The notes beneath the pieces are model-generated. The model was not told where the DNA came from. It did not search any database and saw nothing but the letters and a program-made list of their open reading frames with translations. Both the position numbers and the translations under genes were made by a program. Shown one piece after another: positions 1,692-32,092 of a stretch of 64,000 nucleotides of DNA (position 1 is the stretch's first letter; each line of letters opens with the position of its first letter). The stretch spans positions 164,984 through 228,983 of the forward strand of contig JBPOEZ010000003.1 in the NCBI GenBank assembly GCA_051252005.1. Direction: 5' to 3'. This stretch comes from Alphaproteobacteria bacterium. GTDB taxonomy: Bacteria > Pseudomonadota > Alphaproteobacteria > Caulobacterales > Maricaulaceae.

Positions 1692-1742
1692 AACATTACC
1701 AGCGGCTGTTTTGGAGCGATTTTAGGACGCTGGTAAGAGGAC
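1692..1742 (+). repeat. Leader-head repeat copy A (AACATTACCAGCGGCTGTTTTGGAGCGATTTTAGGAC...GAGGAC)
   Basis: Aligns by eye with 2445-2506, 31643-31704 and the reverse complement of 8065-8125. All share the same 5' boundary (AACATTACC). Confidence 0.65.
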
Positions 1743-1777: not shown

Positions 1778-2320
1778 TTAGTCTAGGGGCGGACCAGGAA
1801 AACTGCTCTCATGTCGTTTCATATCTATTTCAAAAGTTTTAGAAATAGTGGGGTCTCCAGATTTGCTCGGGAATTCAGCCTCCAAACGTATGCAGAGTTT
1901 TTCAATATCGCTTTCGATATATACTTTATTAATTGCTCTTGCAGAGGTGTCGTGGTTATAGGCATCTTCAGACTTTTTGATTTCAATTTCTCCCATCTCC
2001 ATTTTAACGGGCCTATCACATCCCCCTGAATATGCAGATATTCCCGATGTAATCGCATCATAACGGGTGTCGAGATACTCAGGATAGCGCGATATTCGTG
2101 CCGAAATCCAAAAATCATGGTCGTCCCAAGACGCTCCGCTTGATCCGGAGAATGCAGTAACGCTAGCAGACACATTCCAGCCCTCAAAACTGACATCATT
2201 GGTTTGCTTAAACACGCGGGTCTTATAAATCACGCAGCCGCTTAAGGTGACCATTAGTCCAACGAGGGCAAAATTTAGACTAAGACGTCCAAGCCATCTC
2301 TTCATGGTGAGTTGAATCAT
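1778..2320 (-). CDS. Hypothetical lipoprotein
   Basis: Track ORF. N-terminal signal with lipobox LSGC. No recognisable family. Confidence 0.6.
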   Translation of the reverse strand: MIQLTMKRWLGRLSLNFALVGLMVTLSGCVIYKTRVFKQTNDVSFEGWNVSASVTAFSGSSGASWDDHDFWISARISRYPEYLDTRYDAITSGISAYSGGCDRPVKMEMGEIEIKKSEDAYNHDTSARAINKVYIESDIEKLCIRLEAEFPSKSGDPTISKTFEIDMKRHESSFPGPPLD

Positions 2321-2444
2321 GACGTCTATTTCGTCCCTCAGTAAATATCGTTCGACCTAATATTTTTAATTCTTACTTTAAGTTAAAGATTATAGAAAAC
2401 CACCGAGAATTATCCCATTTCCGATAGATGGTGGCGTATCGACT

Positions 2445-2506
2445 AACATTACCGGCGGCCGTTTTTGGGCGACAAAGGCCTCTGGGCTAATGTCCGCAAT
2501 GAGGAT
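2445..2506 (+). repeat. Leader-head repeat copy B (AACATTACCGGCGGCCGTTTTTGGGCG...GCTAATGTCCGCAATGAGGAT)
   Basis: Same head as copies A, D and E. Its last ~22 nt (GCTAATGTCCGCAATGAGGAT) recur at 4996-5016, where the leader of recombinase module 1 resumes. Confidence 0.7.
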
Positions 2507-2560
2507 GATCTTCTCAATCAGAGGGCTGAGTCGGATTTAAAATTCTGAACCACATTCATG

Positions 2561-3304
2561 TTATTGATGTGGTTCAATGGGCGGAAGTGACATCCCGTAG
2601 GCAGCGTAGTCGCCAAGTCCTGAAGAACGGTAAGGTGCGTGAAAGTATCCGTTATCCCCCCACGCTGACCCCAAACTATTCTTTATTCTCCAAAGTCTCG
2701 ACGTATTGTCGTATCCAGTGATGACAACCATGTGACTGTATTTCACGCCGTTAGGGTTCACCACAAAGGGATCACGACCTGTCCAGTTTATAAATGCATA
2801 ATCAATATCCATTGCCGCCGCGACAGGCGATCCACTCGCCAGAGTATATTTGACTTGGTCATCACCGGAGCAAGGTAAAAAGACTGGCGCGTAAATGTCG
2901 CGAAGGATATCGCAATTATCACTATCCCACGGAACACTCCCTTGGCTTGCCCGCGGGACATAGGAATCACTCAATTGCATGGAGACCGTTTCTGGATCAG
3001 CTCCGTTGTCACAGTGGACACCAGAAGAACAATTGTGGATCCACGCGGCTCCCACATCATAAAGCTTATTTGTGATCGCCAGATGGTAGCTTTCTATCAG
3101 CGCTGCGAAAGAGAAAGCTGTGCAAGCGCCTGAGCAGGGCAATTGGCTTTTTACAGGCGAAATTCTGCCTTCATTCACGAGATTCACGGATGGGCGTGCT
3201 GACAATGGCAGAAACTTAAACTCTCTGCCTAAAAAGTCCCCGGGCTGGTAACGCGCAATGAAATCATTTTCGGGAGGTTTGAACTTTACGGGGTGATCTA
3301 TCAT
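2561..3304 (-). CDS. Papain-like (C1 family) cysteine peptidase
   Basis: Motifs SPVKSQLPCSGACTAFSF (Gln / catalytic Cys region), HMVVITGYD (His) and WRIKNSLGSAWGDNGYF (Asn/Trp region). No obvious signal peptide. The 4-nt ATGA overlap with the upstream gene suggests translational coupling. Confidence 0.75.
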   Translation of the reverse strand: MIDHPVKFKPPENDFIARYQPGDFLGREFKFLPLSARPSVNLVNEGRISPVKSQLPCSGACTAFSFAALIESYHLAITNKLYDVGAAWIHNCSSGVHCDNGADPETVSMQLSDSYVPRASQGSVPWDSDNCDILRDIYAPVFLPCSGDDQVKYTLASGSPVAAAMDIDYAFINWTGRDPFVVNPNGVKYSHMVVITGYDNTSRLWRIKNSLGSAWGDNGYFHAPYRSSGLGDYAAYGMSLPPIEPHQ

Positions 3305-4749
3305 CCTCCCTCTAGCTCCGCGAGACGTGCCGCCGTTTCGAGCTGGGCAATACGTGCCTGATCAACCAAAGTATCAATTGTCAACATATCGATCAATTGC
3401 TGGCTTGCGGTAACATCTGGCGGGTTTAAAGTGGCAAGCGCCTCGCGACGTGCGACCTCGTCTTGCAATGCCTTAAGTTCTGCAGCTGCTTCTACCTCGC
3501 GAGCGGCCTCTAGTGCTTGCACTTCCGTTTTAATCGCATCCACTGCTGATGTCAGGGCGGCAATTGGTGCGCCAACCTGTTTGTAGCCGGCTTTTGTCAA
3601 ATTGCCCTTTTTCGAAAACTCAATGGTATATTCAAGACTCTCGAATGGGGCAGCAGAAACGACTAATTTATCTATGTAGCCAAGCTGAGCAACCTTGGCG
3701 CGATGGACGTGAATTTCAGACATAGCTACGGATGCAGGATATGGAAATGGTTTTGATGGATCTTTAATTTTCTCAAAGACCAACCGTCCCGGTTGCGGGG
3801 TGCGATAGGAAATTCCTTTGGCATTGATTGTTTTTTTGTCATCGAGATTGTCAATGCCATTTGCGTTGCTATCGGCTTCAAGCTTTACAAAGACATACAT
3901 GCTCTGCTTTTGGGTCGTGGTTGGGCTATTGCCTGCCCACTTCTTCAGAGTTGCTTCGGGAAGAGCATAGGGGGTCTTGTTTTCCCGGTCAGAGCCTTTT
4001 AGCGGCCAGTAAATAGGTTTTGTAGTGTGAGATATTGGCTTTAGCAAATCGGCGACATGTGCAATTTGTGCTTGCACTGCTGCGTTTGCGTCCCTCACTT
4101 CTGTAAGCTTAGCTTTAATATTTGGATCAAGGGCTGGGTCACTGGTATCAACTATGCCTTTGAATCCAGCTACCAGTTTGTTTAATTCAGTTTTACGTTT
4201 ATTAAGCGCTGCTGTTCTTGTTTTAAGTTCAGCTAATCCTGCATTAGCATCAGCTACGGCTGCTGGAATGCCCGCAGCGACGTTACAAGCATAAACGGGT
4301 GTTAATCCGGTTCCGGCTGGTACCCCCAGCGCTGCGCCAGCTACTTTGATCGCAGTTAATAATGCTGGCCCCGCCTCATCTTTAACGCTGGCATTTACTG
4401 TTTTCAGTAAGCGCGTGTCTTCATAAAAAGTAACTTCGACACCTGCTGAATTAAACCATGTCGAAAGTGATTGCGGATCAATAACAAATCGCGCATCAGC
4501 ATCTTCAATAGACCTATCTTTAACCGCGAAAGATGTAACAATTTTCATTTCGGCAGCAATATTATTCGCTGGATCAGCCTTTATGCATTCTGCAACACGG
4601 CGCGTTATATTGAATTCGAATTGTGTTAGCGGCAAGACATGAACAAGTCCCGTTTGAGGACCGGCTTGGTATTCATAGGTGTTGAGTGTTGAGCTACATC
4701 CAATCAGAACAATTGTCGCTGGAATGCTAATTCGCTTAATTTGTTTCAT
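3301..4749 (-). CDS. Hypothetical lipoprotein with coiled-coil segments
   Basis: Signal plus lipobox VLIGCSS. Ala/Leu/Glu-rich heptad-like stretches in the middle and at the C-terminus. No family recognised. Confidence 0.6.
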   Translation of the reverse strand: MKQIKRISIPATIVLIGCSSTLNTYEYQAGPQTGLVHVLPLTQFEFNITRRVAECIKADPANNIAAEMKIVTSFAVKDRSIEDADARFVIDPQSLSTWFNSAGVEVTFYEDTRLLKTVNASVKDEAGPALLTAIKVAGAALGVPAGTGLTPVYACNVAAGIPAAVADANAGLAELKTRTAALNKRKTELNKLVAGFKGIVDTSDPALDPNIKAKLTEVRDANAAVQAQIAHVADLLKPISHTTKPIYWPLKGSDRENKTPYALPEATLKKWAGNSPTTTQKQSMYVFVKLEADSNANGIDNLDDKKTINAKGISYRTPQPGRLVFEKIKDPSKPFPYPASVAMSEIHVHRAKVAQLGYIDKLVVSAAPFESLEYTIEFSKKGNLTKAGYKQVGAPIAALTSAVDAIKTEVQALEAAREVEAAAELKALQDEVARREALATLNPPDVTASQQLIDMLTIDTLVDQARIAQLETAARLAELEGG

Positions 4750-4995
4750 GCTGCGCCCCTAAATGTAGTTCCAACTAATTAGAAATAGCTCACCAAACTC
4801 GTTTTAGAGACGTTAGTATTCCAAATAAGTACATCTTATGATAGAGCATTGCCTGCAATTCGTCTAGTATATTTTGTAGAGACTTTAATTATTGAGAGTC
4901 ATAGGGAGGCCATATCACATGCATTTGTTTTATAGATTTTCGTACTCTGGGATTAACTCAGCCAATCCCCTAGATTAATCAAAGTGAGAGGTTTT

Positions 4996-5155
4996 GCTAA
5001 TGTCCGCTTTGAGGATCTTTTTCCGTTTTCAACATTCTCACACAATCCACTGGACTTTGTGCGCAAAGGAAGCGGTAGTGTGTTGCGGCCCAATGTGAGG
5101 GTCTTGTCTCGGTAGTAGCGGCCACGATGTGTGGGCGTCATTTACGGAGATTGAA
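4996..5155 (+). promoter_or_regulatory. Conserved 5' leader of recombinase module 1 (3' part only; the head is missing)
   Basis: Highly similar at the nucleotide level to 31684-31844. Contains hairpin candidates (GGCCCA..AGGGTC) and an RBS GGAGA before the ATG at 5156. Confidence 0.6.
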
Positions 5156-5404
5156 ATGGACATTCAAACACAAAAACCCGAAATTAAAGCACCGCGTACT
5201 GGAAGCAAACAAGCCAAGCTCGTTGTCATGCTCTCGCGCAAAAACGGCGTTACACTTGCGAAGGCCAGCGAGACTTTAGGATGGCTGCCGCATACCACCT
5301 CCGCAACCATGACAGGGCTGCGTGGGCGCGGCTATGAGATCACGCGGATTAAACGCGAGGGTAAAGATACGCTGTACGTCATCCATCCTGACGAGGCTGA
5401 GTAA
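5156..5404 (+). CDS. DUF3489-like small winged-helix protein
   Basis: Track ORF 5129..5404. I prefer the ATG at 5156 because it follows GGAGA and matches the start of the paralogue at 31845 (MDxQTQ..IKAPR.GSKQAKLV). HTH-like GVTLAKASETLGWLPHTTSA. Confidence 0.75.
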   Translation: MDIQTQKPEIKAPRTGSKQAKLVVMLSRKNGVTLAKASETLGWLPHTTSATMTGLRGRGYEITRIKREGKDTLYVIHPDEAE

Positions 5405-5904
5405 TGCGGCGGGCGAGCAAGATCGCATCAGAAGTCGCCGAGCTTGAAACACTGGACCGCGTTGCCCTCGCCGCGCAGTGGGAAGCTCTAATGAAACGTT
5501 CGCCGCCTAAGGCCTGTAGCCGTGTGTTTCTCCTCAGGGCTTTATCCTATGAACTGCAAAGTAAGCATGCTCCTGATCTCAGCAAGACGGACATGAGGGC
5601 ACTCAAAGCAAGCTTGGGCAAAGTACCAAGCAGTGCCGTTGAGAATGACAGGGAAGAGGATGCTGCGACCACAACACCTAACGCCAAGACCAAGCCGAGA
5701 CGCAAGGCCCCTGCCCGTCTGGCCCTTGTGCCGGGTGCCCGACTAGTGCGGGAATGGAACGGACAGGCCTATACGGTCTCGGTGATCAAAGAAGGTTTTG
5801 TCTATAAGGACAGAACTTGGAGCTCGCTGAGCGCTATCGCCAAGGATATCACGGGCGCACATTGGTCTGGGCCTCGCTTCTTTGGCTTGGATAAGGCAGC
5901 CTAA
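5404..5904 (+). CDS. DUF2924-like protein
   Basis: C-terminal WNGQAYTVSVIKEGFVYKDRTWSSLSAIAKDITGAHWSGPRFFGL. TAATG overlaps with both neighbouring genes. Confidence 0.75.
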   Translation: MRRASKIASEVAELETLDRVALAAQWEALMKRSPPKACSRVFLLRALSYELQSKHAPDLSKTDMRALKASLGKVPSSAVENDREEDAATTTPNAKTKPRRKAPARLALVPGARLVREWNGQAYTVSVIKEGFVYKDRTWSSLSAIAKDITGAHWSGPRFFGLDKAA

Positions 5905-7598
5905 TGTCTTCCCAGCGCAAACGCTGCGCTGTTTACACCCGCAAATCAAGTGAGGAAGGTTTGCAGCAAGACTTCAACTCTCTGGATGCGCAGGCCGAGA
6001 GTTGCTCAGCTTATATTCTGTCTCAAGCGGGTGAAGGCTGGTCCAAGGTCGATAAGGTCTATTCTGATGGCGGTATATCTGGAGGCCATATGGATAGGCC
6101 CGGTTTGATTGCCTTGATCGCGGATATCAAAGCGGGGCTGATTGATATCATCGTCGTTTACAAAGTTGACCGACTAACACGGTCACTGGCCGACTTTGCG
6201 CGGCTAGTAGATGTCTTTGATAAACATGACGTCTCGTTTGTGTCGATCACTCAAGCGTTCAATACAACGACCAGCATGGGACGGCTAACGCTGAATGTCC
6301 TGCTCTCCTTCGCCCAGTTCGAACGGGAAGTGACGGCGGAGCGTATCAGGGACAAGATCGCAGCCTCAAAGAAACGGGGGCAATGGATGGGCGGCCTTCC
6401 ACCTCTTGGATATGATAATATTAACAAGAAGCTGGTGGCAAATTCTGATGAAGCAAACACAGTCCAGCATATCATGACGCGGTATGTAGAGCTTAAGTCT
6501 GTCACAAAGCTCAAGCATGAACTTGACCTTGATGGTTATCTTACCAAAACCCGCATAACAAGGAAGCAGTCTCAGACAGGCGGCAAGCCCTTTAGCCGCG
6601 GCCACCTCTACAAGCTCCTTTGCAATCCCGTTTACATCGGCAAGACCACACATAAAGGCGTGGTCTTTGACGGACAGCATGATCCTATCGTTGATCAGGA
6701 ATTATGGAATTCGGTACAAGCAGGGCTCAAAGCAAATGCTCCTAAGCGAAGGCGTTCCATTAACATCGCATCGAATAGTCTTCTCACAGGGATGATCTTT
6801 GAAGATAGCGGAGACCGCCTTTCTCCCGTGCATTCTAGAAAGCCCAATGGAAGGCGTTACCGCTATTACATCTCGGCGCGATTATCAAAAGGCGAAATGG
6901 ATGACGGGACGGCCTTGAGGCTTCCGGCCAAACAGATTGAGGGTCAGGTGTTTAGGCGTCTGACAGACCTATTAAGCAATACAGGCCAATTGATGGGTAT
7001 GGTAGACGGCTCACACCTGACACCCCAACAGGTTTCAAAGGTAGAGCAGCATGCAAGCGAGCTAGCCGCGCGCCTCACATCAAACTGCGTTGAAACGCAG
7101 AGAACCCTACTGATTGATATCATTCAACGGATTACCATCTCGCCCAAGGACCTTATGTTGGAGCTTCGGAGGGACGCATTATTTCCAGATGGCATTTGCT
7201 CCCAAAAAGTCAAACTCGAAAACGACGCCATTACGCTCGCCTATCCGCTACAGATGAAGCGGCGCGGCATTGAGACTAAACTCATCATTGGCGGCGTGGC
7301 GTTAGGGCAGCCAGACCCCGAACTTATCAAACTTATTGCCAAGGCCAGAAACTGGTATGGTGGCCTTAAGACGGGACGCTTCAAATCTATCAAAGACATC
7401 GCAGCAATTGAAAAAATGGATGACGGTGATGTCAGCAGAACCTTATCCCTCGCCTTTCTTGCCCCCTCGATCATTCATGACATCATTGCTGGTAATCATG
7501 CTATAAATCTCACGCCAAGAGACTTAAGCCGCAAAGCTAATAGGCTTCCATTAGATTGGGCGCAGCAGCGCAGCTTTCTAGGCATGAAAGCTACCTAA
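5904..7598 (+). CDS. Large serine recombinase (resolvase/invertase N-domain plus recombinase domain)
   Basis: CAVYTRKSSEEGLQQDFNSLDAQ (catalytic Ser region), VVYKVDRLTRS, GHLYKLLCNPVYIGK. 564 aa. No CxxC pairs where a zinc ribbon would normally sit. Confidence 0.9.
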   Translation: MSSQRKRCAVYTRKSSEEGLQQDFNSLDAQAESCSAYILSQAGEGWSKVDKVYSDGGISGGHMDRPGLIALIADIKAGLIDIIVVYKVDRLTRSLADFARLVDVFDKHDVSFVSITQAFNTTTSMGRLTLNVLLSFAQFEREVTAERIRDKIAASKKRGQWMGGLPPLGYDNINKKLVANSDEANTVQHIMTRYVELKSVTKLKHELDLDGYLTKTRITRKQSQTGGKPFSRGHLYKLLCNPVYIGKTTHKGVVFDGQHDPIVDQELWNSVQAGLKANAPKRRRSINIASNSLLTGMIFEDSGDRLSPVHSRKPNGRRYRYYISARLSKGEMDDGTALRLPAKQIEGQVFRRLTDLLSNTGQLMGMVDGSHLTPQQVSKVEQHASELAARLTSNCVETQRTLLIDIIQRITISPKDLMLELRRDALFPDGICSQKVKLENDAITLAYPLQMKRRGIETKLIIGGVALGQPDPELIKLIAKARNWYGGLKTGRFKSIKDIAAIEKMDDGDVSRTLSLAFLAPSIIHDIIAGNHAINLTPRDLSRKANRLPLDWAQQRSFLGMKAT

Positions 7599-8064: not shown

Positions 8065-8125
8065 AAACGCATAAGCCGCTGACATGGGAGTCCTAAACCG
8101 CCCAAAATAAGCCGCTGGTAATGTT
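8065..8125 (-). repeat. Leader-head repeat copy D (inverted orientation)
   Basis: The reverse complement reads AACATTACCAGCGGCTTATTTTGGGCGGTTTAGGACTCC..., which matches copies A and E. ATAAGCC(G/A)CT also recurs at 8071, 8107 and 8152. Confidence 0.7.
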
Positions 8126-8203
8126 TGTGAATACGGCAGAATTCGTCCAAAATAAGCCACTCATTTTATCTCCTACCAAACCCTGCGGACCTCAACTTGG
8201 TGG

Positions 8204-8983
8204 TTAAATTGCTTTCGCAATCATCCATATCCCCATGCCAATCATGGCTAGGTTTTCGGTGAGTGATACAAAGCCCAGCGGTACATTCGCCCCGCCGCCA
8301 ACACAGGCGCATTTTAGATCACGCTTATCGACATAGACCGCTTTAATAACTGAGATCGCGCCAATCGTCCCAATGAACAAAGCAATAGGCGCGGCTATCA
8401 ACCCAAATATTCCGCCTGCAACCATCAGGATTGCGGCCAGCGCTTCTGCAAACGGATAGACATAGGAATAACGCACAACCCGCCGCGCTAAAATATCATA
8501 GCCGACAAACATATTTGAGAAGGTTTCCAAATCTCGTAATTTGAGCATGGCCAGCATGCCCATTGAGAAGGCAATAAACCATTCCAGTGCTCGCAGATTG
8601 AGTACATCGCCTGATGTCGCCCAATTGGCCGCAATCGCGAGCAGTGCGGAGATATAGAAGACGACTAAAACAGGCGTGTAAGTCTTCTTATCCGGGTCTT
8701 TCACCTTATACCCGAAGTTCTCTCGCAGAGCATCAAAGCCGCCGATACGGTCACCGTCGATGAAAGTTTGCGGCGTGGTCTTTACATCATGCTTTTCTTT
8801 AAAGGCATCCGTGTCGACGCGGTTTGTCAGCCAATTATCCTCAACCTCAAACCCTTTGCGTTTGAGAAGGTCCACAGTCTTGATACCAAAGGGACAGATA
8901 TGTTTATCCGTCACCATGCGGTAGACAACGGCCTTTTTACCTTGAGACGTCTCTTTCACGGCAAGTTTGTCTGAAATACTCAT
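8204..8983 (-). CDS. Glutaredoxin-like domain fused to a MauE/DoxX-type membrane domain
   Basis: N-terminal Grx fold (VVYRMVTDKHICPFG...TPQTFIDGDRIGGFDAL) followed by about 4 TM helices typical of MauE. Confidence 0.7.
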   Translation of the reverse strand: MSISDKLAVKETSQGKKAVVYRMVTDKHICPFGIKTVDLLKRKGFEVEDNWLTNRVDTDAFKEKHDVKTTPQTFIDGDRIGGFDALRENFGYKVKDPDKKTYTPVLVVFYISALLAIAANWATSGDVLNLRALEWFIAFSMGMLAMLKLRDLETFSNMFVGYDILARRVVRYSYVYPFAEALAAILMVAGGIFGLIAAPIALFIGTIGAISVIKAVYVDKRDLKCACVGGGANVPLGFVSLTENLAMIGMGIWMIAKAI

Positions 8984-9005
8984 AACTGTCTCCTTCCAGT
9001 TTGAA

Positions 9006-9155
9006 TTATGCTTTAGCGGAACAACAACATTCGCTTTTTGGCTTAGTTAAAGGATCTACCTTTGGCTTGCTCGAAGGTGCATTATTATGGGTAGCGTTCG
9101 ATTTTTGGTTGCAACAGGCTGATTGCGAGGGAGCCGTTATGTGAGTGCAGGGCAT
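9006..9155 (-). CDS. Small Cys-rich peptide (49 aa), below the ORF-track cutoff
   Basis: Hand translation: MPCTHITAPSQSACCNQKSNATHNNAPSSKPKVDPLTKPKSECCCSAKA. RBS GGAAAGG lies 6 nt upstream. It starts ~40 nt downstream of a CsoR-type box and ends 22 nt before the Grx-MauE gene. Confidence 0.5.
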   Translation of the reverse strand: MPCTHITAPSQSACCNQKSNATHNNAPSSKPKVDPLTKPKSECCCSAKA

Positions 9156-9195
9156 GAAAAACCTTTCCTATGGATTGCATTTCCATATACATATA

Positions 9196-9212
9196 ATACC
9201 TATAGGGGGTAT
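9196..9212. promoter_or_regulatory. CsoR-type operator candidate ATACCTATAGGGGGTAT
   Basis: GC tract flanked by an AT-rich inverted repeat. Resembles the Bacillus copZA CsoR box (TACCCTACGGGGGTA) as I recall it. Confidence 0.6.
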
Positions 9213-9293
9213 ATTAAAGAGGCGGTATCATTTTTCTCTTATGCGGTGATCCAGCTAGCTTTCGGCAGTCATCTTGCCCAGCACTAGATAGCC

Positions 9294-10139
9294 CTAATGG
9301 TGATGGCCTCCGGGCCCCGTAAGGGTGGTTGCCAATAAGATACAGACGAGAACGAGTATAAATAAAGCGGCTTCAAGGCTTAATGATTTACGCAGCGCCG
9401 CACGTCCAAGCGATGGCGATTGCGTTAGGAGACCTGCAATTCGAAATTTATTATAAGCGCCCACACCCAATATCAACAAAGCCGAAATGAACTTGCCCAT
9501 TAACAGGCGGCCATAAAGCGTTGAGCTTAAATTGAGTAAATTACCGTTTAGCCGCCATAGCAAATAGAGCCCGGACACAAATAGAAGCGGCACAGCCCAA
9601 ACGGCAAAAAAACTAAACCGATCCGCCCTCGCGATTATGTCATTATCCGATGTCGCAGTTGAGGGCCAAAGACTGATCGGAGCCCATATCCAAAACCCCG
9701 CAATAAGACTATGAGGGACCACCCAGAGCGGAAGCAACGGCATGTTTTCGGCGCCTTGCGTATGCCCTGATGCCGCAAAACCTGCGCTCAATACGATTAT
9801 CGAAAAAGCCGCCGCTATTTTTCTCAAAGCGTTCGCGTTTATGAAGCTGGAGAGAATGGCTAAACCCGCGCCGCCCATGAACACCAAAAACTGAGTCCCA
9901 TTGGACTGCCAGACCCAGCCGAAAGTCTCTGGGTTAAAGGCCGGCGAAAGTGAGCCTGCTAATTGCGCATTGGCAATGATCAGCTTTGAGATGGCTCCTA
10001 TAATGAGAACCGCGACAAATACACGAAGACCCTTCAGTTTTTGCTGAATGCCGAGACAAAAATGCGACAAGATGCCGATTGTGACTAAAGCTGCAATATA
10101 GAGCGTTAGTTTTACAATCAGGGCTAAAGCGGTCAGCAT
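9294..10139 (-). CDS. copD: CopD-family copper resistance membrane protein
   Basis: Polytopic membrane protein immediately downstream of copC in the same operon. Confidence 0.7.
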   Translation of the reverse strand: MLTALALIVKLTLYIAALVTIGILSHFCLGIQQKLKGLRVFVAVLIIGAISKLIIANAQLAGSLSPAFNPETFGWVWQSNGTQFLVFMGGAGLAILSSFINANALRKIAAAFSIIVLSAGFAASGHTQGAENMPLLPLWVVPHSLIAGFWIWAPISLWPSTATSDNDIIARADRFSFFAVWAVPLLFVSGLYLLWRLNGNLLNLSSTLYGRLLMGKFISALLILGVGAYNKFRIAGLLTQSPSLGRAALRKSLSLEAALFILVLVCILLATTLTGPGGHHH

Positions 10140-10147
10140 AGAGACGC

Positions 10148-10507
10148 TTATTGAACTGTGAAGCTCAGGCCGCCTTTGACGATATGCCCGTCCTTAGAAA
10201 TGGCTCTCCACGTCATTTCGTATAGTCCGCTTTGAAACTTGGGCATGGGAATAGAGAATTTTTCTTCCCTGGATTTAGGCGGTGTGAAATCAACTGCAAT
10301 GTCTTTTCCCTCGCTATCTTTGAGAGAAAATGTCGCCAGTCCTACCTTTTGCGCGAACACCAGATCAAAGACTGCCGGCATCGTTTGATAAACGCCGCCG
10401 TCTTCTAATGTGGCGGATTGGACCTTAGTATGAGCCATAGCTGTAGGAGCCAGCAAAGACGCCATGAGAAAAGCCCCAAGCGTCAATTTTAAAAACGACC
10501 TTATCAT
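10148..10507 (-). CDS. copC: CopC-family periplasmic copper-binding protein
   Basis: Signal peptide ending AMA, followed by His as the first mature residue (HTKVQS...). C-terminal WRAISKDGHIVKGGLSF. Confidence 0.8.
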   Translation of the reverse strand: MIRSFLKLTLGAFLMASLLAPTAMAHTKVQSATLEDGGVYQTMPAVFDLVFAQKVGLATFSLKDSEGKDIAVDFTPPKSREEKFSIPMPKFQSGLYEMTWRAISKDGHIVKGGLSFTVQ

Positions 10508-10518
10508 CTGCTTATCCT

Positions 10519-10791
10519 TCAGCGTTTCAATTTATCAAAAAGGTCTACGAGTTCAGCGACTTTTTCGCGCTGAGCCGTCTCGTCACCGGACTGGATGGCT
10601 GCATTCACGCAACCCGCGGCATGTTCTTTGAGGATTTCGCTCTCCGCCCGCGCCATAGCGGATTTTACCGCCTGCATCTGGGTTAAGATATCAATGCAGT
10701 AGCGTTCATCTTCCAGCATTTTGATAATACCGCGCACTTGGCCCTCAATTCTTTTGAGGCGGTTAATTGTCTTAGGTGAGTGTACAGACAT
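10519..10791 (-). CDS. csoR: CsoR/RcnR-family metal-sensing repressor (C-H-C signature)
   Basis: [12 protein letters not shown] motif. Cys in ERYC and His-x3-Cys in KEHAAGC fit the Cu(I)-type C-H-C ligand pattern. Confidence 0.85.
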
Positions 10792-10844
10792 TTTTTCTCT
10801 TACATTAGATAGACACGAAAGCGTGACGCCTTTTGGGCGATAGC

Positions 10845-10861
10845 ATGCCCCATAGGGGTAT
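10845..10861. promoter_or_regulatory. CsoR-type operator candidate ATGCCCCATAGGGGTAT in a divergent promoter region
   Basis: CCCC-ATA-GGGG core between csoR (minus strand) and the cus-like operon (plus strand). Confidence 0.6.
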
Positions 10862-10896
10862 TTACTTTCTTAATCCTTTTGAGCTATGATGCAAGT

Positions 10897-11316
10897 ATGA
10901 GAGTCATTTCGACAGTCTTCTGCTTATTCGCAGCCTTCATCATGATGGCGACACCTGTCATGGCGTGCTGCGTCACAGGTCATGTTGATACGCCTATGAA
11001 TTCAGCACAGGCGGCTGATGCGTCAGCCCCGCCTTGTCACACGACGGCTGAGGCCAAATCAGGCGATAGCGACACGCAAACGCCAGAAAAATACTGTTCC
11101 TCTTGTGATGATTGCACTGTGTCATCTGCTTTCACGGCTTATACTGACCCGGTCACAAATACACAATCAGACCTGACCTTCGTAACGCTTATCAATAACC
11201 CTACGGCCCTGCCGCGTCCGGAAGTGCGCCTTTTGAGAACAACGGGACCGCCTCCAAGGCAACCCCTCGGGCCGTTTGACAGCCCGTTCTCACGCTTCGA
11301 CACTCAACTTATTTAA
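10897..11316 (+). CDS. Small secreted Cys-containing protein, first gene of the cus-like operon (CzcI/DUF2946-like architecture)
   Basis: Track ORF 10879..11316 starts at TTG; the ATG at 10897 is preferred. Signal peptide, then CC, C and CxxCxxC motifs, then a Pro-rich C-terminus (GPPPRQP). Confidence 0.5.
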   Translation: MRVISTVFCLFAAFIMMATPVMACCVTGHVDTPMNSAQAADASAPPCHTTAEAKSGDSDTQTPEKYCSSCDDCTVSSAFTAYTDPVTNTQSDLTFVTLINNPTALPRPEVRLLRTTGPPPRQPLGPFDSPFSRFDTQLI

Positions 11317-11385
11317 TCTCCAAACAGACTGACTGTTCAGAGTTTTCCTCTGAGCCTATTCGCCTGTTTAATTGGAGATTTTCGG

Positions 11386-12729
11386 ATGTTTATCCGCCAC
11401 ACAACATTTCATCAGACTCGGTTTCGTGCCGGAGCGCTCTCACTTTTACTTAGCGGCATAAGCGTCATGAGTTTGCAGTCCGCCGCCTTCGCTCAAGATA
11501 GGCTTTATGCGCCTGATTTACTTGATGCGACGCAAATCAGTGCCTTTGAACTGCCGCAAACTACAATGCGAGCTATGCCGTTTTCCGAATTAGAGGCTCA
11601 ATTGCGCGACCACCCATCATTGGACGCGCTTAGCCTAAGGGCGCAGGCCAATCGACACCGTGCAGAAGGCGCGCTGGGACTGCCTGATCCTGTGGTGTCG
11701 CTCCAACTTAACAATGTGCCGCTTTTTGATCCTTCTTTTTCCGAATATCTTCCGTCCAACAAAGCCGTCGGCATTCGGCAAGCCCTGCCAAGTCGATCTG
11801 ATCGCAAAGCCAATTCGCTTAAATCCCTGAGAAGCGCAGCGCAGCAAGAGCTCGATCGTGAGCAGCAATATGCCAGGCTTCGCGGACAGCTCTTGGTTTA
11901 CTTAATTGAGAAACAGAGCCTTGATACCCAGCGAGACTTAGCCCTCGCGCGCCAATCCAAATATAATGAATTGTCAGACATCATAGATATTGAAATCAAT
12001 GCGGGCCGCCCTTTGGTGTTCCGCCTCGCTAAAGTTGATGTAGAGCGCACAGAGGTTTCAAGAACCCTCTCGCAACTGGACGGTCAAAAGGCAGAAATTA
12101 ACGCAGAGCTTATCAATCTATTGGGCTTCATTCCTGAAACCGACACGCCTGCGCTTTCCAAGACGCCATGGACCGGGAATGCTCTTGGGTTTTATGCCGT
12201 CCGCGTCGCCGATGCGGATGTCGATATATCCGATGCTGATGTGCAGCGCGCAGAAGCCGACTTTAAGCCCAATTGGGGCGTCAATCTAACATACCAACAG
12301 CGCGAGTCTGGCCAAGGTCCACGATCAAATTTTGACGGTGAAGATTGGGTGTCAGGCGGCGTCAGTTTTTCAATCCCGCTTTGGGCAGGCAAACGTCAAG
12401 AACCCAATTTACGGGCCGCTAAGATTGACAAGATTGCCAGTATTGCGCGGCGCACAGCCATAGCGCGGCAAGTGCAATCCGAGTGGTCACGCTATGAGGC
12501 GCGGCGAGAGACCGCTGTCCAAAACATACGGATTATCGAGCAAAAAATTAGCGCGATTGAAGCGCAGACAGCCGCCCAATTGATCACATACGAATCCGGG
12601 GCTGGCGATTATTCCCCCATTCTGGACGGCGAGATTGCCATTCTTATGTTGCGCTCGGAAATCGTCAAAGAACAAACACGGCGCGATCAAATGATTGCAA
12701 AAATGAACAGCCTTTTGGTGACATCATGA
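11386..12729 (+). CDS. cusC: TolC-family outer membrane efflux protein (CusC-like)
   Basis: Signal peptide, OEP-type repeats, and operon position ahead of the adaptor and RND pump. Confidence 0.8.
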   Translation: MFIRHTTFHQTRFRAGALSLLLSGISVMSLQSAAFAQDRLYAPDLLDATQISAFELPQTTMRAMPFSELEAQLRDHPSLDALSLRAQANRHRAEGALGLPDPVVSLQLNNVPLFDPSFSEYLPSNKAVGIRQALPSRSDRKANSLKSLRSAAQQELDREQQYARLRGQLLVYLIEKQSLDTQRDLALARQSKYNELSDIIDIEINAGRPLVFRLAKVDVERTEVSRTLSQLDGQKAEINAELINLLGFIPETDTPALSKTPWTGNALGFYAVRVADADVDISDADVQRAEADFKPNWGVNLTYQQRESGQGPRSNFDGEDWVSGGVSFSIPLWAGKRQEPNLRAAKIDKIASIARRTAIARQVQSEWSRYEARRETAVQNIRIIEQKISAIEAQTAAQLITYESGAGDYSPILDGEIAILMLRSEIVKEQTRRDQMIAKMNSLLVTS

Positions 12730-14471
12730 CCCCTTTTAAATACGCCCTAATCCTAAGCAGCGCCTTCATTCTGGCGGCGTGCGAACCTGCATCCAAACAG
12801 CCATCGGCGTTAGACGCCGGACATGATCACGCGGCTATGCAGGCAGAGCAATCGCAGCAATCAAAAATGGATATGCCAGCAGAAGAGGTCAGCTCTTATA
12901 CCTGTCCAATGCATCCGCATTTTATTTCAACGGATCCCAATGGGAGCTGCCCAATTTGCGGTATGGATCTTGTGCCTGTCTCGACAGAGCCCAAAGGCAG
13001 TTCGGGCGTTTCCATCTCTCCTGAAATGCTCCAAACAATGGGTATCAGAACAGCCATCGTCTCCGTTTCAAACTTTAATCAAGCCTTGCGCGCTTACGGC
13101 ACAGTCGAGCCCAATACACGGCTGGAGTCTATGGCGGCCTCCCGTCTTGAAGGCTGGATCAATGGTCTGACCGTGAGGGCAGAGGGCGACAGCGTGCGCC
13201 GCGGACAACGTCTTTATAGCATTTACACACCTGAGCTAATCGCAGCCCAAAAGGACTACCTGGCCTCACTACAAATTGGCAATGAGCGCCGCATTGCTTC
13301 CGTCCGTCAAAGGCTAATATCTAAAGGCATGCAAGAAAGCCTTGTCGAGCGCCTGACCGAGACCCGCGAGCTCATTGAGCGCGTGCCCGTCTATGCGGAA
13401 AGTTCCGGCGTTGTAACGCAGCTTATGGTGCGCGACGGCGACTACCTCAAACCCGGTGACCCGATCATGCAGTTACAGGCTTATAATAAGGTTTGGGTTA
13501 TTGCGTCAGTACCGGAGTCTGATTTACCGAAAATGGTAATAGGGAAGACAGCAGCTTTGAAATTTGAAAGCGCGCCTGATGCCGCAAAATCAGGCAAGAT
13601 TGACTACATCTACCCAACCATTGATACAAAAACGAGAACGGCCCGCGTGCGTATCAGTGTTGATAATGCATCAGGCTCTTTACGCCCTGGCGCTTATGCG
13701 GACATAATCTTTGAAGCTGACAAAACTGAAACGCCGACATCACAGCTCTCTATCCCAAGCCAAGCCATATTACGCGATTCACGCGGAGCACATGTGATTG
13801 TCGCTCTAGGGGAAGGCCGTTTTGACTCCCGCGATATTACGATTGGCTCAAGTATTCGCGGCCGCACAGAGGTTTTATCAGGCCTTGCGGAAGGTGAGCG
13901 TATTGTCGCCAGTGGTCAATTCATGCTCGATTCTGAATCCAACCTGCGAGAAGGGTTTTCAAAACTCAGCGCGCCTACCTCAAATTTTGACGGAACAACC
14001 GCTTTGTCCGAGCTTCCAATAGACGGCTCTACACTGAGCCAAATTGATCACATGATTGATAGCGCGCTCTATTTCCATGAAGCCTTGATTGATGGCTATG
14101 CGATTGACCCTTACTTCCTAGATCCCACCCTCACATTGATTGAAAATCTAAAGGGCCGATTTGCAGGCTCCAAGCTGTCTCCGATTTTAGAAAAGGCTGA
14201 GACGTCCATAAGCGGCGCTAAAGAGAATAAAATGGGCGAGCCCTTAGCAGTCCAGCTTTCAAAGTTGATGACGGCTCTTGATCCGTGGCTGACGCTAGGC
14301 GCGCCCGCTCACTATAAAAGCAAGGGTCTCATATTTTATAGCGATGATGAAACGGCTCGTCTTTGGCTGCAAGAGGGCGGATTACCTGCTAATCCTTATT
14401 CGGATGCTACGGCTCAAGTCATTGCGTGGCCTGATCCCATGGCTGACGACATGTCTGGCACAACCCCATGA
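12726..14471 (+). CDS. cusB: RND periplasmic adaptor (CusB-like) with N-terminal CxxC metal-binding motifs and a C-terminal extension
   Basis: YTCPMHPHFIS..GSCPICGMDL, then an HlyD-type adaptor core, then an extra helical domain of ~180 aa (DUF3347-like). Confidence 0.8.
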   Translation: MTPFKYALILSSAFILAACEPASKQPSALDAGHDHAAMQAEQSQQSKMDMPAEEVSSYTCPMHPHFISTDPNGSCPICGMDLVPVSTEPKGSSGVSISPEMLQTMGIRTAIVSVSNFNQALRAYGTVEPNTRLESMAASRLEGWINGLTVRAEGDSVRRGQRLYSIYTPELIAAQKDYLASLQIGNERRIASVRQRLISKGMQESLVERLTETRELIERVPVYAESSGVVTQLMVRDGDYLKPGDPIMQLQAYNKVWVIASVPESDLPKMVIGKTAALKFESAPDAAKSGKIDYIYPTIDTKTRTARVRISVDNASGSLRPGAYADIIFEADKTETPTSQLSIPSQAILRDSRGAHVIVALGEGRFDSRDITIGSSIRGRTEVLSGLAEGERIVASGQFMLDSESNLREGFSKLSAPTSNFDGTTALSELPIDGSTLSQIDHMIDSALYFHEALIDGYAIDPYFLDPTLTLIENLKGRFAGSKLSPILEKAETSISGAKENKMGEPLAVQLSKLMTALDPWLTLGAPAHYKSKGLIFYSDDETARLWLQEGGLPANPYSDATAQVIAWPDPMADDMSGTTP

Positions 14472-17400
14472 GCGAGCATAATATCGACAACTTAGCGGGC
14501 AAAGATCCGTCAAAGTCAGCCATTGCCAAGCTGATTGCATGGTCTGTTGCCAATCAGCTTATCATCATTGTCCTCGCCATAGCATTAGCCGTCGGAGGCT
14601 GGCTGTCGCTCAAGGAAATGCCGCTCGATGCCATCCCTGACCTGACGGATACGCAGGTCATCATCCGGACCGAGTTTCCGGGACAGTCACCGCAAATTGT
14701 CGAAGATTTGGTGACCTATCCGCTTTCAACAAACTTATTAGGTCTGCCAAAGACGAAAGATGTACGCGGCTCGTCCATGTTCGGCACCAGTTTTGTTTAT
14801 GTCATCTTTGAAGAAAGCGTGGACCCTTATTGGGCGCGCTCACGCGTCGTCGAAGCGCTCTCTCGCCTCGGTTCTGAACTCCCCGAAAATGCCAATCCTC
14901 AAATTGGGCCCGACGCAACGGGCGTGGGCTGGATTTACCAATATGCCTTAGTCGATAAGACGGAGCAGACAGATTTGGCGGAGCTGCGGTCCCTCCAAGA
15001 TTGGTTCTTAAAGTTAGAGCTTTCAGGCGTAGAAGGCGTTTCAGAAGTGGCCTCCGTCGGCGGATTTGAACGGGAATATCAAGTCCACATCGACCCTAAT
15101 CAATTAGAGTCGTTTAACGTATCCATCGACCAGCTTGCTCGCGCCATTCGCGCCGCCAGCAGCGAGGTTGGCGGACGCGTGCTTGAGCAAGGCGAGACTG
15201 AATATGTCATCCGATCATCCGGCTATGTCAAAACAGCGCTCGACTTAGAACAAGTCGTGGTTTTGGCCGAAGACGGGACGCCTGTGATATTATCGGATGT
15301 GGCCCGCATCGTTGAAGGCCCAGCGCTTCGGCGCGGTATTGTCGAACTCAACGGCGAAGGCGAAACCGTGGCGGGCATCATCGTGATGCGTGACGGCGAA
15401 AATGCATTGGAGGTTATTGACCGGGTCAAAGATAAGCTCACAGAGCTGCAGCGTGGCCTTCCGGACGGTGTTGAGATCGTCACAGTCTATGATCGCGCGC
15501 CGCTCATTGAGGGGGCTGTGTCCTATCTGAAAAAGAAGCTGATTGAGGAAGGCCTTGTTGTCGCCCTCGTCATTTTTCTTTTCTTGCTGCATTTTAGAGC
15601 TGCCTTTGTCGCGGTGTTCACCTTACCGCTGGGCGTTCTAGGGGCTTTCATCATCATGTCAGGCCAAGGCGTAACAGCCAACATCATGTCTTTAGGCGGC
15701 ATTGCTATTGCGATTGGCGCGATGGTGGATGCGTCCATTGTCATGGTCGAAAACGGGGTGCGAAAACTCTCAGACTTGGGAGAGAAACCTGACGAAGCAA
15801 CGCGCAAACGCGTGCTAATTCAAGCCGCGCAGGAAGTCGGCCCCGGTCTCTTTTTCTCGCTATTGATTATCGTCGTCTCCTTTCTCCCTGTCTTCGCTCT
15901 AACTGGAGAAAGCTACCGTCTGTTCTCGCCGCTCGCTTTTACTAAAACCTACGCAATGGCCTTTGGCGCTTTGTTATCCGTTACGCTTATTCCTGTGCTG
16001 ATGATTTGGCTATTGCGCGGTAAGATGCGTCCGGAGACCGCCAACCCGCTTAACCGTTTCATTGTCTGGATTTATAAACCCATCATTTGGGCAGCACTCA
16101 AATTCAAATGGGTGACAGTGCTTATCGCCATAATCATCACGGCAAGCGTTATCATTCCCGCGCAAAAGCTAGGCACTGAATTCATGCCCGCGCTCTATGA
16201 GGGCGAGCTGCTATATATGCCGACCACCTTGCCGGGCGTTTCCTCAACTAAGATGCGTGAAATTCTCGGCCAGACTAACCGCGTGATTAAAACTGTTCCT
16301 GAAGTGGAGGCAGTCTTCGGTAAGGCGGGACGTGCCGATACGGCGACTGATCCCGCGCCGCTGACCATGATTGAGAGCTGGATTAAGCTAAAACCTAAAT
16401 CCGAATGGCGCGCAGGTATGACCGCTGACGGTATTGTCGATGATCTAAACAGCCGCCTTCAAATGCCGGGACTTGTAAACTCATGGGGTTATCCGATCAA
16501 AATTCGGATGGATATGGTCTCGACGGGTATCCGCACGCCTATTGGCATTAAGGTGACAGGTGACAACCTTACTCAGATTGAAGCTATCGCGCGCGAAATT
16601 GAAGGCGTTGTCACCGACATCCCCGGCACGCGGTCTGCTTTTGCTGACCGTGTTCTCGGCGGTAAATATCTTGAGATTACGCCTAACCGATTGGAACTGG
16701 CGCGTCGCAATATCGACATGGGGACTTTCCAAGGCGTTATCCAAACAGCGCTTGGCGGGATGACCTTGGCCGAGTCGGTGCAAGGACGTGAGCGCTATAA
16801 TATCATGCTGCGATATGAGCGGGCCTTCCGCGAAACGGATGCGGACATCGAGAACATTCTCATTCCCACACCAACGGGCGCGCATATACCGCTGCGCGAA
16901 GTTGCAAGCGTTGCCTACACTGAAGGGCCGCCGATGATCCGGTCTGAAAACGCGCGTCTTACGGGATGGGTATTTGTTGACATCGCGGGACGTGACCTTG
17001 GGGGCTATGTTGCTGAGGCCAAGGACATCGTTGCAAATGCTGTCACCTTGCCGCCGGGCTACGCCATTGGATGGTCGGGTCAGTATGAGCAATTACAGCG
17101 CGCCAATGAACGTCTAAAAATTGCAATACCTGCGGCTATCGGTCTTATCTTTCTGCTCCTAATGCTCCACTTTGGCCGTCTTGACCGCACACTGATCATC
17201 ATGCTGTCTCTGCCATTCGGCCTCGTTGGCGGTTTATGGGCCGTCTATTTAGCGGGCTATAACCTGTCTGTTGCGGTGGCTGTTGGCTTTATTGCTTTGG
17301 GCGGCATCGCTGTTGAAACCGCCGTGGTCATGCTGCTCTACATTGATCAACAAGTACGCACGGACGGCCCGAAAACACGCGATGAGCTTTTCCAAGCGGT

Positions 17401-17656
17401 TAGCCACGGCGCGGCGCTACGTGTCCGTCCTAAACTAATGACAGTTCTCACAGTCATGGCAGGTCTCGCCCCCATATTCCTGACTGAAGGGTTAGGCTCT
17501 GATGTCATGCGGCGCATCGCTCTGCCCATGCTCGGGGGCATGATTTCAACAACCCTGCTAACGCTCATCGTCATTCCAGCCATCTATTTCATCTGGGTCG
17601 GTCGCCAACTTCCAAAACTACCAACACATGCAACGCTTGAAGGAGAAACCGCATGA
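14468..17656 (+). CDS. cusA: CusA-type heavy-metal efflux RND pump (Cu/Ag type)
   Basis: Three-Met cluster positions are conserved relative to E. coli CusA: LLYMPTT, APLTMIES, RMDMVSTG. Confidence 0.9.
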   Translation: MSEHNIDNLAGKDPSKSAIAKLIAWSVANQLIIIVLAIALAVGGWLSLKEMPLDAIPDLTDTQVIIRTEFPGQSPQIVEDLVTYPLSTNLLGLPKTKDVRGSSMFGTSFVYVIFEESVDPYWARSRVVEALSRLGSELPENANPQIGPDATGVGWIYQYALVDKTEQTDLAELRSLQDWFLKLELSGVEGVSEVASVGGFEREYQVHIDPNQLESFNVSIDQLARAIRAASSEVGGRVLEQGETEYVIRSSGYVKTALDLEQVVVLAEDGTPVILSDVARIVEGPALRRGIVELNGEGETVAGIIVMRDGENALEVIDRVKDKLTELQRGLPDGVEIVTVYDRAPLIEGAVSYLKKKLIEEGLVVALVIFLFLLHFRAAFVAVFTLPLGVLGAFIIMSGQGVTANIMSLGGIAIAIGAMVDASIVMVENGVRKLSDLGEKPDEATRKRVLIQAAQEVGPGLFFSLLIIVVSFLPVFALTGESYRLFSPLAFTKTYAMAFGALLSVTLIPVLMIWLLRGKMRPETANPLNRFIVWIYKPIIWAALKFKWVTVLIAIIITASVIIPAQKLGTEFMPALYEGELLYMPTTLPGVSSTKMREILGQTNRVIKTVPEVEAVFGKAGRADTATDPAPLTMIESWIKLKPKSEWRAGMTADGIVDDLNSRLQMPGLVNSWGYPIKIRMDMVSTGIRTPIGIKVTGDNLTQIEAIAREIEGVVTDIPGTRSAFADRVLGGKYLEITPNRLELARRNIDMGTFQGVIQTALGGMTLAESVQGRERYNIMLRYERAFRETDADIENILIPTPTGAHIPLREVASVAYTEGPPMIRSENARLTGWVFVDIAGRDLGGYVAEAKDIVANAVTLPPGYAIGWSGQYEQLQRANERLKIAIPAAIGLIFLLLMLHFGRLDRTLIIMLSLPFGLVGGLWAVYLAGYNLSVAVAVGFIALGGIAVETAVVMLLYIDQQVRTDGPKTRDELFQAVSHGAALRVRPKLMTVLTVMAGLAPIFLTEGLGSDVMRRIALPMLGGMISTTLLTLIVIPAIYFIWVGRQLPKLPTHATLEGETA

Positions 17657-31642: not shown

Positions 31643-31844
31643 AACATTACCAGAGGCCGTGTTTGGGCGTTTTAAGACTCCGAGCTAAGGTCGTCTTAGA
31701 GGATCTTTTTCCGTTTTCCATTATCTTCCACAACCCACTGGACTTCCTTCGCAAAGGAAGCAGTAGTGTCTTGCGGCCCTGATGTGAGGGCCTTGTCTCA
31801 GTAGTAGCGGTCACATTGAGTGATCGCCAATCACGGAGACCAAA
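31643..31844 (+). promoter_or_regulatory. Complete conserved leader of recombinase module 2 (head = repeat copy E, 31643-31704)
   Basis: Begins with AACATTACCAGAGGCCGTGTTTGGGCG. Hairpins CTTCCTT-cgca-AAGGAAG and GGCCCT-gatgtg-AGGGCC. RBS GGAGA before the ATG at 31845. Confidence 0.65.
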
Positions 31845-32090
31845 ATGGACACTCAAACACAAACATTAGATATCAAAGCCCCGCGCGCAGGGAGCAAACA
31901 GGCAAAGCTTGTGGCCATGCTATCGCGTAAATCAGGGGTCACGCTTGCAAAGGCGAGTGAGGCATTGGAATGGCTTCCTCATACAACGTCAGCCGCCATG
32001 ACTGGCTTGCGTAAGCGCGGTTACGTCATCACCAGCATAAAACGGGAAACCAAAGACATGCTATATGTCATTCACCCGGATGAGGCATAG
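31845..32090 (+). CDS. DUF3489-like small winged-helix protein (paralogue of 5156..5404)
   Basis: MDTQTQTLDIKAPRAGSKQAKLVAMLSRKSGVTLAKASEALEWLPHTTSAAMTGLRKRGY. Confidence 0.8.
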   Translation: MDTQTQTLDIKAPRAGSKQAKLVAMLSRKSGVTLAKASEALEWLPHTTSAAMTGLRKRGYVITSIKRETKDMLYVIHPDEA

Positions 32091-32092
32091 CC

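Follow-up and report, generated by a model that had tools for sequence, protein, structure and literature searches.

A pair of overlapping genes in a 64,000-nucleotide (nt) stretch of DNA from an alphaproteobacterium of the Maricaulaceae (GenBank assembly GCA_051252005.1, contig JBPOEZ010000003.1; the whole stretch is hereafter called the window) is most likely a conserved, horizontally mobile conflict module with an anti-phage role. The first gene encodes a 482-amino-acid (aa) lipoprotein and the second a 247-aa protease of the papain family (C1). At the loci that we surveyed, four unrelated protease families (C1, C70, trypsin and S8) partner this one lipoprotein family, and the simplest explanation for the tolerance of four catalytic types is that the lipoprotein is the substrate, such that the cut counts and not the chemistry of the enzyme making it. 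We tentatively favour a reading, to which we give slightly less than an even chance, in which the lipoprotein would be a protease-gated envelope effector that applies gasdermin-like logic in the periplasm by means of a new fold. Coordinates of the features in the window are collected in Table 1.

Neighbourhoods of lipoprotein family members were fetched across the whole range of sequence identity, giving 15 loci when the window is counted (individual loci are designated by L numbers). A protease gene adjoins the lipoprotein gene at 14 of the 15, with lipoprotein identities to the window protein down to 20-25%. Ten loci (the window, L001, L002, L003, L007 in Pseudomonas gingeri, L008, L010, L011, L014 and L015) have a C1 partner, and in all ten its gene overlaps the lipoprotein gene or begins no more than 5 nt downstream of it, the genes either overlapping by 4 nt (ATGA), 1 nt (TGATG) or 8 nt or being separated by a gap of 5 nt. 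Elsewhere, the partner is a trypsin-family protease with a lipobox signal of its own (L009), a Peptidase_C70 protein encoded together with a 202-aa protein of unknown function just upstream of the lipoprotein gene (L012), or an S8 subtilase and a trypsin, both with signal peptides and convergently encoded (L013). The pairwise identities of the lipoproteins and those of their C1 partners are tightly correlated (r 0.96, Mantel p 1e-4). In the window, the junction reads GGAGGATGATAG, in which the TGA stop codon of the lipoprotein gene overlaps the ATG of the protease gene, and a Shine-Dalgarno-like GGAGG lies just 5' of the overlap, in agreement with the translational coupling proposed when the window was first annotated. 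A programmed frameshift fusing the lipoprotein to the protease was considered and rejected, because junction geometry varies between loci and they have no slippery site in common. The pair singled out in the initial annotation is thereby found in synteny elsewhere, with neither gene belonging to a housekeeping pathway, but the family of the adjacent protease varies.

Three of the loci carry further details. The only solitary member of the lipoprotein family that was found is a full-length protein of 575 aa (hhalign probability 99.8), encoded at 8001-9728 of L016 (Cupriavidus malaysiensis plasmid NZ_CP017756), where the nearest 2 kb or so contain no protease gene; its gene adjoins a tyrosine recombinase gene and an unannotated open reading frame (ORF) resembling a PpiC-type rotamase. 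Gene order is reversed in L012 (2529-5106), where the Peptidase_C70 protein (182 aa, signal-less) is followed by the 202-aa protein, which may be an extra component of the module, and then by the family lipoprotein. An Exo_endo_phos nuclease/phosphatase gene stands directly after the pair in L002 (12241-15361), and a second C1 peptidase, xylellain-like, 291 aa long and with a longer N-terminal region, is encoded 2 kb further on.

Recognised defence systems adjoin the pair in at least six of the loci with enough context. A SIR2-APAZ/short prokaryotic Argonaute system and a complete Gabija system are encoded directly upstream of it in L001, within a conjugative element, and its neighbours in L008 are Septu, a PDC-S71 helicase, WYL and an E1-E2/JAB module. 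Single defence-type neighbours occur in L010 (PDC-S31), L012 (an Mrr-type restriction enzyme) and L009 (an LmuB-like protein); a TIR protein is encoded near the pair in L002, and a PDC-S41 helicase gene neighbours it in the window. Genes of mobile elements (IS3, integrase, relaxase and type IV secretion system genes) are frequent among the neighbours: L013, like L001, is a conjugative element, an IS3 element adjoins the pairs of L009 and L010, and an integrase is present in L011. The lipoprotein family itself is sporadically distributed and hyper-diverse, which we take to be typical of conflict genes. No characterised system with this gene pair had been recognised in the window sequence, and the searches bear this out: neither the lipoprotein, nor the 247-aa protease, nor a 180-aa lipoprotein encoded nearby matches PADLOC-DB v2.0.0 at expectation values (E) of up to 0.1, no such system came to light in Pfam, NCBIfam, PHROG or the PDB, and literature searches returned no description of a lipoprotein-protease pair.

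The 482-aa protein has the sequence features of a bacterial lipoprotein, as initially annotated. Its N-terminus, MKQIKRISIPATIVLIGC, contains a signal peptide that ends in the lipobox L-I-G-C18 (Cys18 codon tgt, 4698-4696), the lipobox Cys is invariant across 59 aligned family members, and the lipobox pattern occurs in 123 of 143 full-length family representatives; on these grounds, it is a predicted Lgt/LspA substrate. The same 59-sequence alignment shows Cys18, Cys55, Asp83, Pro249 and Gln355 to be invariant and Cys155 to be nearly so. An exhaustive profile search recovered 829 representatives (clusters at 50% identity) at E <= 1e-3, 489 of them at <= 1e-10 and 96 at <= 1e-30, and nearly all of the 829 matches are full-length (460-520 aa). 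The status of rare orphan, which the protein had seemed to deserve, was therefore rejected; the apparent rarity was an artefact of the word index. A word-indexed search had returned only the protein itself (a hypothetical protein of the NCBI metagenome-assembled genome 'Alphaproteobacteria bacterium') and three relatives of 43-57% identity, with no relatives of the 247-aa protease, and an indexed search with the 59-sequence profile added a single usable protein. Clusters at 90% identity hold 1-6 members each, almost all metagenomic. Beyond L011, pattern scans of metagenomes and genomes added nothing but L004, which is the L001 locus again, and a tblastn search for plasmid carriage with four queries gave one distant member only.

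The family is without domain annotation. The 482-aa protein matches no model of Pfam, NCBIfam, PADLOC or PHROG and nothing in a sequence search of the PDB; Pfam returned no consistent match for the 59 relatives and nothing significant either for the profile consensus sequences of the family or for ten longer members in which fused domains were sought. The lipoprotein falls in no described family and represents a large unannotated one. The sole recurring signal in the Pfam scans is a sub-threshold match to DUF4831, a family of lipoproteins from Bacteroides (E 0.13 for the consensus of the family studied here and 0.008 for one of its members), at the motif Y-x-L-P-x-T-Q-F of the N-terminal strand (window 4600-4650, residues ~34-50), and a very distant relationship between the two families may exist. 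Phage carriage was not detected: the lipoprotein has no PHROG match, three pattern sets found no relative in IMG/VR, and a fold search of BFVD was negative. A phage origin, including a lysis or structural (spanin-like) function, was rejected on the strength of these searches.

An AlphaFold2 model of the lipoprotein built from the 59-sequence alignment is confident, with a mean predicted local distance difference test score (pLDDT) of 83.5 and a predicted template modelling score of 0.79. Along the chain, the model shows a long beta-hairpin formed by residues 35-57 and 67-91, then a helical hairpin (161-196, 209-239), then a further beta-rich domain (residues 240-391) and lastly, in a region with a conserved LNPP turn motif, a C-terminal helical hairpin. 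The long coiled-coil segments of the initial annotation are indeed helical, but take the form of these two hairpins in the model. The best Foldseek matches to the model, at E 0.25 in the PDB and 0.024 in BFVD, are not significant, and the modelled fold appears to be previously undescribed. Confidence is low at residues 123-138, 147-150 and 394-414, the last being a linker of variable length ahead of the C-terminal hairpin. Segment 125-147 has a low pLDDT but is conserved; it abounds in Ala, Gly, Val and Ile, contains GxxxGxxxG (G138/G142/G146) in the window protein and is the most hydrophobic mature stretch in most family members (mean 19-residue hydropathy, KD19, 1.43); we regard it as a candidate membrane-interacting element. 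Its interpretation as a transmembrane helix that places the C-terminal half in the cytoplasm was rejected, because 1.43 falls below the usual transmembrane threshold (1.6) and the conserved Cys55 and Cys155 flank the segment. A further CxxxxC pair occurs in the C-terminal half of most family members, and these conserved Cys pairs agree with a wholly periplasmic location of the lipoprotein.

The 247-aa protein scores 55.5 bits against Pfam Peptidase_C1 (PF00112; cut-off 20.7, E 1e-14, residues 44-224), and a PDB search with a profile built from this protein and related sequences finds the mature domains of cathepsin K and Der p 1 (E 7e-24). The Gln/Cys/His/Asn set read from the translation in the initial annotation is in place: the first five partners to be aligned show no variation at Gln54, Cys61, His191 or Asn209, and the four residues are conserved throughout the ten C1 partners, with Cys61 standing opposite the catalytic Cys34 in the alignment to Der p 1. 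By score and residue set, the protein is assigned to Peptidase C1 and is predicted to be catalytically intact. The PDB match begins near residue 37, leaving an N-terminal extension of only about 37-40 aa, so that an I29 prodomain is lacking. A hydrophobic N-terminus is absent from the window protease, as had been noticed, and from each of the other C1 partners; a secretory signal and an I29-type prodomain are typical but not defining of C1A zymogens, and the 247-aa protein has neither. The C1 partners keep Cys at the columns aligned with Cys31, Cys65 and Cys71 of Der p 1, which we take to be disulfide-forming, and the retention of these columns hints at an oxidising location.

Under the favoured reading, the constant part of the module would be the periplasmic lipoprotein of about 480 aa and the variable part the protease, with the former as the substrate of the latter. 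The lipoprotein would be produced as an inert, lipid-anchored precursor; on a trigger, which we infer to come from a phage, the partner protease would cut a flexible conserved region, either the linker 394-414 or the loop at about 123-150; cleavage would free the hydrophobic Gly/Ala-rich segment 125-147 for membrane insertion; and the inserted form would damage or seal the envelope, resulting in abortive infection or exclusion. The partners differ in how they might encounter this substrate. All three serine-protease partners (the L009 trypsin and the L013 S8 protease and trypsin) have export signals, while the cysteine proteases are signal-less beside an exported lipoprotein, which places enzyme and proposed substrate in different predicted compartments. 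A C1 protease could possibly reach the exported lipoprotein by non-classical export or through a breach of the inner membrane, or could cleave precursor that has not been exported.

Several observations weigh against this reading. The absence of an export signal extends to ten of ten C1 partners and to the C70 partner, and the C1 partners have no sensor domain, their N-terminal extension spanning only about 40 aa. The hydropathy of segment 125-147 is below that usual for transmembrane segments, the segment might simply be a buried strand, and Foldseek showed no similarity of the lipoprotein model to pore formers. L016, although a full-length family member, has no nearby protease, several loci (L007, L014) have no defence genes, and the locus sample comprises 15 of the loci behind 829 representatives, selected for long contigs.

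Among the alternatives, the protease may itself be the effector, with the lipoprotein as its regulator, anchor, inhibitor or immunity protein, an arrangement that we consider improbable. In one version, a signal-less papain-like toxin would be delivered to the periplasm of a neighbouring cell while the periplasmic lipoprotein protects the producer. A signal-less protease beside an exported lipoprotein follows the classic arrangement of effector-immunity pairs acting in the periplasm, for which the Tae/Tai and Tle/Tli pairs of type VI secretion systems (T6SSs) serve as the model; the papain-type disulfide Cys columns of the C1 partners suggest an oxidising compartment, the tight co-divergence of the partners is also compatible with binding between them, and L008 contains a Tle1-like gene at a distance of 1.7 kb. 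By contrast, a specific inhibitor or immunity protein would hardly be expected to pair with four mechanistically unrelated protease families, and the serine-protease partners have signal peptides or a lipobox of their own, which argues that they are not delivered effectors. Moreover, the T6SS linkage genes (VgrG, Hcp, PAAR and adaptor genes) are absent from the Pfam listings of the fetched loci, and the lipoprotein, at 480 aa, is large, is the more conserved partner and shows no similarity to known inhibitors in a PDB sequence search or with Foldseek. Of the three roles offered in the initial annotation, those of protease-activated envelope effector and anti-phage module gain from the family swapping and the defence neighbours, whereas that of a toxin/immunity pair is disfavoured by the four protease families.

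The pair may instead provide a non-defence accessory function of the envelope (nutrient-scavenging proteolysis, adhesion, colonisation or conjugation-related exclusion) and travel as mobile-element cargo, to which we likewise assign a small probability. Secreted proteases encoded next to lipoproteins are a common feature of nutrient acquisition. The neighbours of the pair in L007 and L014 are genes for transport, regulators and TonB receptors, not defence genes, L001 and L013 belong to conjugative elements, where surface-exclusion lipoproteins are known, and the island in the window otherwise carries metal-resistance cargo. Such a function sits poorly, however, with the recurrence of recognised defence systems beside the pair, with signal-less cysteine proteases, which are unsuited to a secreted digestive role, and with the extreme diversity and sporadic distribution of the family. 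Finally, a fortuitous adjacency of two functionally independent genes, which the solitary L016 member might suggest, is highly improbable and effectively excluded by the synteny survey, given the adjoining proteases across very divergent sequences and hosts, the conserved coding overlap and the co-divergence of the partners.

Bacterial gasdermin-protease operons are the closest analogy for the favoured reading, that of a protease-gated effector. In these operons, the type of protease varies and the cleavage event is what matters. They share with the pair described here a two-gene module in which the effector gene precedes the protease gene, residence in defence islands, a protease family that varies between loci around a constant effector family, a lipid-modified effector N-terminus and a terminal segment after a flexible linker. 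The two effectors differ in that no sequence or structural similarity was found (Pfam; Foldseek against the PDB) and in that the lipoprotein is twice the size; it is exported with a Sec signal and lipobox, whereas gasdermin is cytosolic and palmitoylated. The C1 partners are also without sensor or repeat domains, and cleavage and pores are only predicted here. Of the hallmarks of a gasdermin system, we found the interchangeable adjacent protease (C1, C70, trypsin, S8) but not the gasdermin fold: Pfam assigned no family to the window protein or to 59 relatives, and no PDB fold matched at an E below 0.25. Aerolysin-type protoxins and monalysin resemble the lipoprotein in their elongated, beta-rich architecture with long hairpins and in the activation by removal of a terminal peptide that we propose; they differ from it in fold (best PDB E 0.25), in that the lipoprotein stays lipid-anchored in the producer, and in that its candidate insertion segment is Gly/Ala-rich and hydrophobic rather than an alternating amphipathic beta-hairpin.

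The protease has its own relatives among the C1A peptidases (cathepsin K, Der p 1 and xylellain) and has in common with them a sequence signature at the level of the fold, the catalytic Gln/Cys/His/Asn residues and a number of Cys columns; unlike them, it lacks a signal or I29 prodomain, and its gene is translationally coupled to a lipoprotein gene. Papain-like proteases co-encoded with a dedicated partner are also found in staphopain-staphostatin pairs and with the lipoprotein inhibitors of the chagasin/ICP (inhibitor of cysteine peptidases) type. The staphostatin- and chagasin-type inhibitors are small beta-barrels of about 110 aa that are specific for cysteine proteases, whereas the partner described here is a 480-aa protein of unrelated fold that pairs with serine proteases as well. 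In Pseudomonas, one inhibitor resembling chagasin is lipid-anchored (bioRxiv 10.64898/2026.06.02.729523).

Within the window, the three ORFs of the segment at 1778-4950 (482, 247 and 180 aa) are present on the minus strand at the coordinates first reported, and the AT-richness that had been judged by eye was borne out by windowed computation. The GC (guanine plus cytosine) content of the segment is 0.456, whereas windows of equal size average 0.510 +/- 0.019 over the whole set; the segment falls in the lowest 0.3% and is the most AT-rich 3.2 kb within the window; GC content at third codon positions agrees, at 0.38-0.48 in the segment genes and 0.50-0.59 in the neighbouring genes. A scan for promoters and terminators gave a number of matches within chance expectation, and the sigma-70-like match at 4838-4866 remains a candidate only. 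The segment lies, as annotated, in a mobile island, here recognised as a serine-recombinase island with repeat-flanked cassettes. Its order is L half-site (1692), 180-aa gene, composite L/R site (2445-2513), protease pair, R half-site (4996-5023) and recombinase module. The composite repeat of about 70 nt (L and R halves) occurs whole at two places, 2445-2513 and 31643-31711, and at the latter it is contiguous and located upstream of a second DUF3489-DUF2924-serine recombinase module. The leaders of the two modules become homologous again exactly at R (4996-5023), and shuffled sequences indicate that no copies of the L/R repeats are expected by chance. The repeats may be recombination sites or element ends, and the repeat-flanked layout together with the low GC content supports separately acquired cargo cassettes.

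The 180-aa lipoprotein occupies a cassette of its own, as originally noted, flanked by L repeats. It has the lipobox L-S-G-C29, no family match in Pfam, PADLOC, NCBIfam or PHROG and no match in the PDB or among plasmids, and a single-sequence AlphaFold model of low confidence (pLDDT 53) suggests an all-beta protein. Among the related loci, its gene recurs only in L005/L006, the identical element, and the protein is outside the conserved module. On the other side of this cassette, the DUF2075 helicase-like gene noticed initially proved to be real and corresponds to the PADLOC candidate PDC-S41 (E 2e-230); a longer copy of the same element, L005, contains the helicase at full length (659 aa). 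There, a DUF5681 gene, an N6/N4 DNA methyltransferase gene, an HTH_31 regulator gene and a Peptidase_M78 gene follow the helicase (13155-17283), and these genes may form with it a larger defence or mobile-element block. Copper/silver resistance genes sit between the two recombinase modules of the window, where a metal-resistance cluster (8204-17656) encodes a glutaredoxin-MauE fusion, CopD, CopC, a CsoR-type repressor, a 145-aa Cys/His-rich protein of unknown function and a CusCBA-type resistance-nodulation-division efflux system; the paired modules around resistance genes suggest a composite or tandemly accreted island.

Table 1. Features of the window, with positions counted from its first letter.
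Feature	Position	Strand	Basis and remarks
482-aa lipoprotein gene	3301-4749	minus	ORF; conserved core of the module, proposed protease-gated effector
Signal peptide and lipobox, residues 1-18, Cys18	4696-4749	minus	read from sequence; Cys18 invariant
Hydrophobic Ala/Gly-rich conserved segment, residues 125-147	4309-4377	minus	low pLDDT; candidate membrane-insertion element
Linker before C-terminal hairpin, residues 394-414	3508-3570	minus	pLDDT <50, length varies in alignment; candidate cleavage region
C-terminal helical hairpin, residues 416-482 (H416-441, H450-481)	3304-3504	minus	AlphaFold2 model; candidate autoinhibitory/oligomerisation element
ATGA stop/start overlap, translational coupling	3301-3304	minus	read from sequence
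247-aa papain-family (C1) protease gene	2561-3304	minus	Pfam PF00112; signal-less
Catalytic Cys61 of protease	3122-3124	minus	alignment
Catalytic His191 of protease	2732-2734	minus	alignment
Weak sigma-70-like promoter match	4838-4866	minus	candidate; 5' of lipoprotein gene
180-aa orphan lipoprotein gene	1778-2320	minus	ORF and lipobox; separate cassette
L half-site repeat	1692-1719	+	left boundary of 180-aa cassette
L half-site repeat	2445-2472	+	right boundary of 180-aa cassette
R half-site repeat	2486-2513	+	left boundary of protease-pair cassette
R half-site repeat	4996-5023	+	right boundary of pair cassette, start of recombinase-module leader
Inverted L copy	8095-8127		downstream of recombinase 1
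DUF3489-DUF2924-large serine recombinase module of island	5129-7598	+	Pfam
Paralogous DUF3489-DUF2924-large serine recombinase module	31845-34302		recombinases 80% identical, homologous upstream leader
PDC-S41 / SLFN-g3 (DUF2075, now PF09848) helicase gene	1-1595 (gene at 87-1595)	+	E 5e-83; cut by left edge of window

If the favoured reading holds, the pair would represent a second protease-plus-executioner design besides that of the gasdermins, structurally unrelated to it and the first in the Gram-negative periplasm. A broader proposal, possible though on present grounds rather doubtful, is that these unannotated periplasmic lipoproteins, widespread and new in fold, act as protease-gated executioners of the diderm envelope, with an immune logic like that of gasdermins but independently evolved and exerted from the periplasmic side. 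For modules with a cysteine protease, this proposal adds that the inner membrane may serve as the switch, since the signal-less enzyme would meet its substrate only on breach of that membrane or failed export during infection. A large family without domain annotation and with a confidently modelled, unmatched fold is a good target for the definition of a new protein family and possibly of a new membrane-active mechanism, and the contrast between signal-less cysteine and signal-bearing serine partners could reveal a new way of sensing a breach of the envelope.

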